A stretch of 22,590 bases of DNA from a virus (IMGVR_UViG_3300014970_000006:1-22590), one strand, 5' to 3'. Shown: positions 18,856 through 19,912, counted from the stretch's first letter. The notes: generated by a model from the letters alone, not told the origin. Numbers and translations: made by a program.

Positions 18856-18895
18856 AACCGTAGCACGTCGTATGCAAGATCGTGCTGCGGTTTAT
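18856..18895 (+). repeat. Hairpin repeat copy 1
   Basis: CCGTAGCACGTCGTATGCAAGATCGTGCTGCGG: stem GCACG/CGTGC with 13-nt loop; near-identical direct copy at 19873-19912. Confidence 0.6.
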
Positions 18896-18912
18896 GCTTA
18901 TCACTTAAAGAC

Positions 18913-19686
18913 TCAAAAATTAGGTGAGTAACGGACCGGGGACATAGCTCCTTTTTTTCTTAATTCATCTGGTATTTTTTTTCCAAGATAAAGATTTGCT
19001 ATTTCAGGTGGGGCTTCTCGACCTTCAAAACCATAGCGAGAACTTTGTGTTGCCTCAAAGTCCGGATCCTCGTCCCAGTATTTCATCGTAGGGAAATTTT
19101 CACGTGTTGATTTGAGCCATTTATCAGCAATGAAAACCCCTCGAACGATCCCCCTTACAGTAGCAAGAATGACTTCTGCTTGGCTGGCGCGAGAGACATT
19201 AATGCGCCAGCTAAATCGAACCGCATCATAAAGCTCTGAATCCTTTGCACTTCTGTTAACGGAAATCATTAATGCTTTATGATGAAATGTTATGGTTTCG
19301 GGTTGATATGTTGCTATCAACTCTTTGACATGCGCGGCGCCGAATTCATTGCTGCCAGCACCATTCATGATATTCGTTAACCCAGGGTAGGCATCAATAA
19401 GTGCTGCTTCAACTTCGTACGCCGTCTTTTCATCAGTCATTCCGTGTCGATGGATGACATGGATAACCTCAAGTCCTGCTAACCTTATTTCTCTAATTTG
19501 CTTTAGCTTGTTGCTCAGTAACTCGTCATCATCAGTCGCTGCCACTTCACCGCGCATATGGGCAAATACGCGGTTACCTTTGCCTTTCCCTACATAGAAG
19601 GTGCTTCCGTCCCTCGGATCAATCAATCGGTATACATACCAGCCAAGGTGTTCAATTACTCCAGAAGGAAACTCAGTAATATCCAT
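18913..19686 (-). CDS. GIY-YIG-like nuclease domain protein (258 aa from the likely start)
   Basis: N-terminus [29 protein letters not shown] parallels the UvrC-type GIY-YIG motif ([24 protein letters not shown] as recalled); AT-rich, opposite strand to the tail genes. Confidence 0.65.
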
Positions 19687-19872
19687 TTTGCAATATCTAT
19701 GAATTATTTGTGAGACGTATATTAATGAACATTGCAAGGGCTCACAACCAGTAGTGTTGAGAAAACTATCGGGTAAATGAGGCTAATTCTTTGAATTTAC
19801 ATAGTAAAAAAAGATACTTTTCCTCATAGTGTGAGCTAATTTTATGTTTCGTTTGATGATCGGACCGGTCTC

Positions 19873-19912
19873 AAAAACCGCAGGCACGTTGTATGCAAGA
19901 ACGTGCTGTGGC
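19873..19912 (+). repeat. Hairpin repeat copy 2
   Basis: CCGCAGGCACGTTGTATGCAAGAACGTGCTGTGG; direct repeat of copy 1 with about 4 differences. Confidence 0.6.

Follow-up and report, generated by a model that had tools for sequence, protein, structure and literature searches.

A conserved hairpin element borders the CMoRE defence gene at the end of an e14-like prophage and probably serves as terminator and module joint

The prophage end and its two repeats

The viral DNA stretch IMGVR_UViG_3300014970_000006:1-22590, called the window below (the whole 22,590 nucleotides that were analysed), carries the end of an e14-like prophage, with baseplate and tail-fibre genes, an invertible segment and the DNA invertase gene pinE. 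Downstream of pinE, two direct repeats of 28 nt each, GCACGTCGTATGCAAGATCGTGCTGCGG (18863-18890) and GCACGTTGTATGCAAGAACGTGCTGTGG (19884-19911), share 89% identity at a spacing of 1021 nt. Between them lies a single leftward gene for a GIY-YIG protein, PD-T4-3/CMoRE (18913-19686, minus strand, 257 codons), together with its upstream region. A first-pass annotation of this DNA had described near-identical direct repeats of about 35 bp, both with hairpin potential and with the GIY-YIG gene alone between them, and this description is confirmed. With their outer arms the copies measure ~34-39 nt, and a degenerate 25-mer recovers exactly these two sites in the window, where 0.00 are expected (100 shuffles). 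Both repeats fold stably on the plus strand, repeat 1 at -23.6 kcal/mol (z -4.7) and repeat 2 at -20.1 kcal/mol (z -2.1). The minus strands fold more weakly (-17.4 kcal/mol for repeat 1), and the energies obtained for the two hairpins of the window span -14 to -24 kcal/mol.

Each repeat is a separate copy of the same conserved structured prophage element, but the two are not equivalent, the first being a hairpin alone and the second the complete element. A covariance model of the element (R1) aligns over the complete ~100 nt at 19873-19974 (108 bits, E 6e-28), whereas at 18853-18919 it scores 35 bits and the hairpin portion alone is aligned. Repeat 1 (18855-18893, no strand assigned) is a hairpin-only copy of the family with a stem of 13+2 bp. 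Its first base is also the third base of the pinE stop codon (TGA, 18853-18855), and the copy sits 19 nt past the stop of the convergent CMoRE gene, wedged between the two genes. Repeat 2 (19873-19974, no strand assigned) combines a hairpin (19878-19911) with a second helix (~19913-19960) round a conserved core, which differs at three positions from the family sequence CGATAGTGCGAGTATTGAATGAT. On its minus strand the hairpin is followed by UUUUUGAG (UUUUU), and the element directly adjoins the stop codon of a dinI-like gene remnant. The model also has a third, weak match at 20479-20545 on the plus strand (11 bits, E 0.15). Its loop, GCAAAAAC, is similar and its tail reads GATTTTA; chance or the decay of a former copy probably accounts for it.

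The identity of the gene between the repeats is clear. Its product matches the PADLOC system PD-T4-3 (PDLC04031) over residues 2-257, its full length (E 2.4e-140), is nearly identical to CMoRE of E. coli O157:H7 (PDB ID 9U75, E 2.1e-172), and possesses the Pfam LEM-3_GIY-YIG domain. A PHROG 'homing endonuclease' profile also matches, weakly (E 0.002). The gene is the known anti-T-even defence gene PD-T4-3/CMoRE, the structure of whose product has already been solved, and not a homing endonuclease. CMoRE is a type IV restriction endonuclease that degrades the 5-hydroxymethylcytosine (5hmC) and glucosyl-5hmC DNA of T-even phages (PMC12923530), and its activity in a native host has been reported (bioRxiv 10.1101/2024.12.20.629700). 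The 170-nt upstream region (19687-19856, minus strand), its presumed promoter, is identical in all locus types examined and stays with CMoRE in every context of the 80-locus sample described below; a consensus scan of the minus strand of this region returned no sigma-70 promoter match.

The remaining features of the window frame this arrangement. The serine DNA invertase gene pinE (18301-18855, plus strand; Pfam Resolvase and HTH_7, annotated pinE in the near-identical locus of strain H7) is the last rightward gene ahead of the cargo region. The tail-fibre invertible segment lies between the Pin crossover sites, two inverted stretches of 20 nt at 16418-16437 and 18220-18239 (AAACCTTGGTTTGGGAGAAG and its complement). 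Beyond repeat 2 lies the 3' fragment of a dinI-like gene, dinI' (19980-20063, minus strand), reduced to its last 32 codons and carrying an internal stop as well as a deletion; tblastn with intact DinI-like proteins located it at 20063-19983 (E 5e-8), and PGAP labels the equivalent stretch a frameshifted DinI-like pseudogene. Antisense to this remnant runs an open reading frame (ORF) of 29 codons (19937-20026, plus strand) whose ATG lies in the conserved core of the element. The record of phage phi80 annotates its counterpart (PHI80_26, 'antisense to dinL'), and there is no conservation beyond the element. Further cargo (20377-22359), named after the strain H7 annotation, consists of an ImmA/IrrE peptidase and helix-turn-helix (HTH) gene (20377-21291, minus strand) and a BRO-N gene (21598-22359, plus strand). 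The window closes with the 3' end of ssrA, the gene of transfer-messenger RNA (tmRNA; 22530-22590, minus strand, 62.6 bits with the Rfam tmRNA family), 100% identical to ssrA of strain C7. It marks the prophage/chromosome junction, the right end of the prophage, on the BRO-N side, adjoining ssrA. The GC content, 0.50 in pinE, drops to 0.34-0.45 over the cargo, with 0.41-0.45 in CMoRE and 0.34-0.42 in the ImmA-HTH-BRO stretch.

The element family and its fold

Copies of the element were gathered through its conserved core, the hairpin being left unconstrained. Their alignment delineates a discrete element of ~100 nt that is the same across unrelated flanking genes on both sides and ends near GATTTTAC, beyond which the sequences diverge. 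The hairpin is built of an 8-bp outer stem, a one-base bulge at which all four bases occur, an inner stem of 4-5 bp and a conserved loop, GTATGCAAGA; overall, its interrupted stem counts 10-13 bp. In the complete form, a second helix (GGCTGG...CCAGCC) encloses the invariant 22-nt core CGATAGTGCGAGTATTGAATGAT. All 86 hairpin variants fold, with a mean of -17 kcal/mol. Among 80 distinct sequences, aligned by fitting to the covariance model itself, 17 of the 19 pairs display changes on both sides (117 cells, in both helices), a level reached by none of 500 shuffles and far above that of slid controls. Pairs 5-63 (GC 32, AU 27) and 67-151 (GC 52, AU 22) are clear examples. In a plain MAFFT alignment the bulge puts the columns out of register, so that RNAalifold did not detect the hairpin; the covariance-model alignment was used instead.

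The family is very common. Of 5426 complete E. coli genomes, 4618 contain matches to a query of 83 nt round repeat 2. These matches number 12,222, the median being three and the maximum nine per genome. The query also matches 100 phage records, among them HK97, HK633, phi80, phiP27 and many Stx phages. In all annotated cases inspected, the element comes directly after the last tail gene or pin and is followed by a dinI-like gene, by sib/att/int or by the prophage end. The last rightward late gene before it encodes a tail fibre, a tail-fibre assembly protein or Pin, in lambdoid and e14-like prophages. The exact 22-nt core is found in Escherichia, Shigella, Citrobacter and Kluyvera. It also occurs in a 3.3-kb contig of a metagenome bin labelled Bacillota, which is most likely a misbinned fragment of an enterobacterial prophage. 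To note, RefSeq lays a short 'capsid protein' coding sequence over the hairpin element in several E. coli genomes (hits H32, H72, H74 and H184-H187), probably a spurious call on non-coding DNA.

The first-pass annotation had envisaged that the repeat might turn out to be a common genome-wide repetitive extragenic palindromic (REP) or terminator element unrelated to the boundaries of the cassette. The element is indeed common and terminator-like, but it is specific to prophages and sits at module boundaries. REP elements number hundreds per genome and are spread over the whole chromosome. An assignment to REP elements or to bacterial interspersed mosaic elements (BIMEs) was rejected on the low copy number given above and on the position of the element, every annotated context inspected being a prophage end.

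The fold raises the possibility that the element is mainly a functional RNA, either a small RNA (sRNA), stand-alone or derived from a 3' untranslated region (3'UTR), or a processing or stability element, in which activity would reside in the loop and the second-helix core. Two covarying helices round invariant single-stranded stretches, in a discrete unit conserved across unrelated genes, speak for such a function, and in HK97 the element adjoins the annotated sib retroregulation site. The Shigella family CssrB (chromosome-encoded Shigella sRNA B, RF02799) moreover ends in this hairpin: its 3'-terminal hairpin, AAACCGcaGCaCGuCuuAAGCaaGAaCGuGCugCG, is the one described here, in plus orientation. 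The likeness stops there, as the last ~40 of the 180 model positions match and the body of the sRNA is missing; with the terminal hairpin alone aligning, the scores are 32.4 bits, at repeat 1, and 15.2 bits against a gathering threshold of 76 bits. Rfam yields no family at threshold, either on the element of the window or at 12 other loci, and no promoter was found for the element. Furthermore, repeat 1 is devoid of the second helix, so that an RNA function could fit one repeat alone, and the wobble cells of the alignment (62 A-C against 35 G-U) do not fix the acting strand. Altogether, a primary role as RNA appears unlikely. A known sRNA was rejected in particular: the CssrB match is below threshold, and the prophage sRNAs Pas, AgvB and AsxR sit elsewhere in prophages. 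Literature searches with the name CssrB and with the sequence of the element returned nothing relevant, the sequence appearing in no searchable paper.

Hairpins as module boundaries

When loci with and without the GIY-YIG gene are compared, homology breaks exactly at or inside the hairpins, in support of the cassette boundary that had been suggested from the sequence of the window. CMoRE is present or absent among otherwise similar prophages, and the loci without it read pinE, hairpin, element tail. In an unbiased sample of 80 CMoRE loci, a hairpin is found at a fixed spacing 3' of the CMoRE stop codon (19 nt in the window) in all 80. Beyond this hairpin, the outer contexts are of at least five unrelated kinds, including pin alleles, a tail-fibre-assembly remnant and an ssrA-like remnant. 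The left and right arms of the hairpin assort independently, in a four-gamete pattern; crossovers have therefore occurred inside the hairpin or at it. The left arm of repeat 1 travels with the pinE allele, while the repeat 2 variant travels with a tRNA-Ser remnant described below.

The same organization extends to other cargo. Two to three copies of the element, in direct order round different cargo, are found at 29 loci, where they bracket CMoRE, CMoRE with Dcm and EcoRII, the dinI'-ImmA-HTH-BRO stretch, or a protease-like gene; one further match pair brackets an omptin gene, a methyltransferase, a hydrolase and a gene of the phage-integrase family. In the strains that harbor a Dcm-type methylase and the EcoRII restriction enzyme next to CMoRE between two hairpins (L003, 4239-6915; L021, 10215-12939), the three genes form a small defence island. 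Each cargo unit ending in the same sequence of 35-100 nt, the element would provide short shared homology for the exchange of cargo between prophages. We propose that the breakpoints cluster in or at the hairpin because its copies supply this homology, a recombination pathway that we infer.

Direct repeats round a single gene also call to mind a target-site duplication, another suggestion of the first-pass annotation, or the footprint of a mobile GIY-YIG cassette moved by transposition or as a free-standing homing gene. Loci with one hairpin and no gene do exist, GIY-YIG domains are found in homing endonucleases, and the weak PHROG match mentioned above would point the same way. The sequences of the repeats speak for a different origin. 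They are 34-39 nt long and no more identical than the 89% given above, and each is closer to copies elsewhere than to its partner, the two copies belonging to different lineages. The right-hand copy is embedded in a longer element of 100 nt that has a dinI remnant of its own, and single hairpins stand at thousands of prophage ends without the gene. Conversely, in 431 genomes the gene has the left hairpin alone and lies next to serU. Finally, there is no transposase in the cassette, terminal inverted repeats were not noted, and the protein is a characterised restriction enzyme directed against modified phage DNA rather than a homing enzyme. A duplication or homing origin of the repeats is thus highly improbable.

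Junctions with tRNA-Ser and ssrA

The motif GGACCGG had been reported near both repeats. It does recur, but its two occurrences are unrelated. The first, at 18934-18940, lies within the CMoRE coding sequence; it was considered as a remnant of an attachment (att) site and rejected, the 10-mer match to the tRNA being, by a rough estimate, within chance. The second, at 19862-19868, is explained because it is part of a remnant of the attachment core of tRNA-Ser(CGA), encoded by serU. This remnant, TGAT-CGGACCGGTCTCAAAAACCG (19857-19880, plus strand), matches the anticodon arm of the tRNA at 19 of 20 positions. In the 431 genomes cited above, which include O157:H7, the upstream region of CMoRE continues as the remainder of tRNA-Ser followed by the native serU flank, a true attR, whereas in 154 genomes it runs into the hairpin, as in the window. 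The serU attR therefore indicates that the CMoRE unit formerly stood as the final gene ahead of the att site in a serU-integrating phage. The unit probably began as pinE, hairpin, CMoRE and att of such a phage; a later joint at the shared GAAAACCG would fuse the truncated att core to the hairpin of the dinI module, yielding the arrangement of the window.

The tRNA-Ser remnant is found at a fixed distance from CMoRE in 77 of 79 loci. Within the CMoRE sample, the sequence after it always switches at the 3' end of the anticodon loop, whichever hairpin variant follows, and what lies beyond is either the 3' half of the tRNA (the true attR) or one of several hairpin variants. A comparable joint is observed in strain H7, just past the equivalent of the window end (L001, 8330-8400), where an ssrA T-arm remnant, TGGTGGAGCTGGCGGGAGTTGAA, stands alone and is fused to a third hairpin copy. 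The fusion of this remnant to a hairpin at the equivalent point is also present in many IMG/VR prophage contigs. Such a regular switch point could result from microhomology or from an integrase acting on the hairpin base as a pseudo-att site.

The latter view may be carried further, the hairpin base being a site-specific recombination site, either a pseudo-att site for tRNA and tmRNA integrases or an attC-like site, and the flanking copies a product of recombinase-driven insertion. Anticodon-loop integrases cross over at the 3' end of the anticodon loop, and the switch point coincides with it. Besides the fixed distance of the tRNA-Ser remnant from CMoRE and the ssrA fusions, the core-hairpin joint is the same with three different left arms, and single-gene units between imperfect hairpins look like integron cassettes. 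However, the 7-8 nt common to the core and the hairpin base (GAAAACCG) are enough to focus illegitimate joints at this point. None of the 5426 E. coli genomes has the reciprocal junction (tRNA-Ser 5' half, core, hairpin), and the element of ordinary serU lysogens lies ~330 nt left of the core without adjoining it. The integrase of the strain H7 prophage is at thrW and not at serU, and the Pin invertase, whose sites are unlike the hairpin, is the sole recombinase identified in the window, IntI, attI and attC core motifs not having been searched for. Site-specific recombination at the hairpin base is, on balance, unlikely.

Three related candidates were set aside. The joint at repeat 2 as the intact attP of a serU phage was rejected on the missing reciprocal junction. 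Integration of the whole window prophage into a hairpin through a serU-type integrase was rejected on the thrW position of the H7 integrase, the far end of the prophage being rearranged in strain C7 and uninformative. A Pin crossover site spans 26 bp, with two inverted 12-bp half-sites and a 2-bp core; the real sites read TTCTCCCAAACC..GGTTTGGGAGAA, while the hairpin shares AAACC alone with them and its arms are more than 25 nt apart.

A broader and speculative form of this idea is that the ~100-nt element is a dedicated cassette junction of enterobacterial prophages. Its hairpin base would mimic the anticodon arm of tRNA-Ser or the T arm of tmRNA and would be used by tRNA-targeting integrases, or by Red/RecET-type recombinases, to stack and swap defence and virulence modules. 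The element would then be a prophage counterpart of attC, possibly with an RNA function of its own. We regard this as improbable.

Predicted termination at the hairpins

The reading that we find likely is that the repeats are terminator hairpins of leftward cargo genes which double as short portable homology for module swaps. Both are G+C-rich stem-loops just past a stop codon, that of pinE and CMoRE for repeat 1 and that of dinI' for repeat 2. A U-run follows the stem of repeat 2 on the minus strand (UUUUUGAG) and not on the plus strand (CUGGCUGG); the tails of repeat 1 are partly U-rich on both, with UUUAUGCUU on the plus and UUUCAUUUAU on the minus strand. The A-run 5' of the stem has a family-wide average of 3.5 of 8 positions, versus 1.7 of 8 for the T-run 3' of it. 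Since an A-run 5' of the stem is the U-tract of a leftward RNA, this fits leftward termination. Of the distinct right flanks, 49% contain a leftward ORF of at least 60 codons whose end falls at the element, compared with 17% at random positions. On the left side, 92 of 105 variants have a stop triplet, in whichever frame, no more than 15 nt upstream, a count without random control. The ending of the Rfam CssrB consensus in this hairpin is an indirect hint of a transcript end.

Applied to the window, repeat 2 would end the leftward dinI'/ImmA-HTH unit and shield the CMoRE promoter from read-through, while repeat 1 would end the leftward CMoRE transcript. Repeat 1 probably also ends the rightward pinE transcript, acting as a bidirectional terminator between convergent genes. 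The paired regulatory hairpins proposed at the outset are consistent with these positions, each hairpin sitting where the terminator of a leftward gene would be expected. In the simplest reading, the full form would be a terminator with a structured 3'UTR for leftward cargo genes, butted against the end of the rightward late operon. The termination activity and the strand that acts as RNA are what we infer here.

Several observations weigh against this proposal. A consensus terminator scan of the window called neither hairpin. With 13 nt, or 8 nt if two extra pairs form, the loop is long, and both window copies fold better on the plus strand, on which full elements have no U-tract; among the 105 variants, at least five A's stand upstream of the stem in 31 and at least four T's 3' of it in none. 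The wobble counts given above leave the strand unfixed as well. A plain terminator would not need such strong conservation of the loop and of the second-helix core, which hints at an extra role, for example in protein binding, as an sRNA or in RNA processing. As regards module exchange, the hybrid of the repeat 1 left arm with the repeat 2 right arm, the expected deletion product, was met in none of 337 loci. Moreover, simple homologous exchange fails to explain why two different att-core remnants, of tRNA-Ser and of ssrA, join the hairpin at one and the same point.

Significance and comparison with known systems

The odd repeat of the window is explained by ordinary prophage architecture, in which cargo genes each end in the same terminator-like hairpin. 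While the gene itself is already known, the element is uncatalogued, well defined and very common, and it belongs with the moron terminators and module junctions of lambdoid prophages. As a practical marker, present in ~85% of complete E. coli genomes, it signals where the variable cargo of lambdoid and e14-like prophages lies, between the tail-fibre genes and the attachment site, a region in which defence genes (CMoRE, EcoRII) and an omptin gene are found. In one strain, the genes of the type III secretion system effectors NleH and NleF (nleH, nleF) lie at the same prophage end. Recognition of the element would help to delimit cargo modules and to avoid spurious ORF calls such as the 'capsid protein', and it would aid the study of how defence genes are exchanged between prophages over 35-100 nt of homology.

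Four known systems resemble this organization in part. REP elements and BIMEs are likewise imperfect palindromes of ~35 nt in 3' untranslated positions that can stabilise or end transcripts. The present element differs from them in sequence, in its confinement to prophage ends and in its second conserved helix. The likeness to integron cassettes resides in tandem, mostly single-gene units, each with an imperfect hairpin whose structure is conserved and whose sequence varies. In contrast to integron cassettes, the units described here carry their own upstream regions and their hairpins occur in one to three copies; no circular intermediates are known, and the recombinase at hand is Pin rather than an integron integrase, within the limits of the search stated above.

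Prophages and satellites reportedly possess hotspots of defence genes, such as those of P2 and P4. The e14 position is similar in being a fixed prophage site with interchangeable anti-phage genes. In the e14 prophage of K-12 (BW25113), the gene after pinE is mcrA, which encodes another type IV modification-dependent restriction enzyme, and no hairpin is present there. With mcrA after pinE in K-12 and CMoRE here, this position therefore holds interchangeable anti-phage nucleases. The differences from the P2 and P4 hotspots lie in the location, at the tail-fibre/pin end of lambdoid and e14-like prophages, and in the boundary, a conserved structured non-coding element in place of conserved core genes.

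Morons are promoter-gene-terminator units inserted between the genes of lambdoid phages such as HK97 and HK022. CMoRE fits this description in its position between pinE and the dinI' unit, with repeat 1 as its 3' stem-loop and a GC content below that of pinE. It is a single accessory gene, unneeded for phage growth, between the late operon and att. It would have its own transcription and a stem-loop end, so that the boundary of the unit would be its terminator. What distinguishes the present case from morons is that many cargo units share one conserved hairpin or 100-nt element, which displays covariation and a conserved loop and acts as a recurrent recombination joint.

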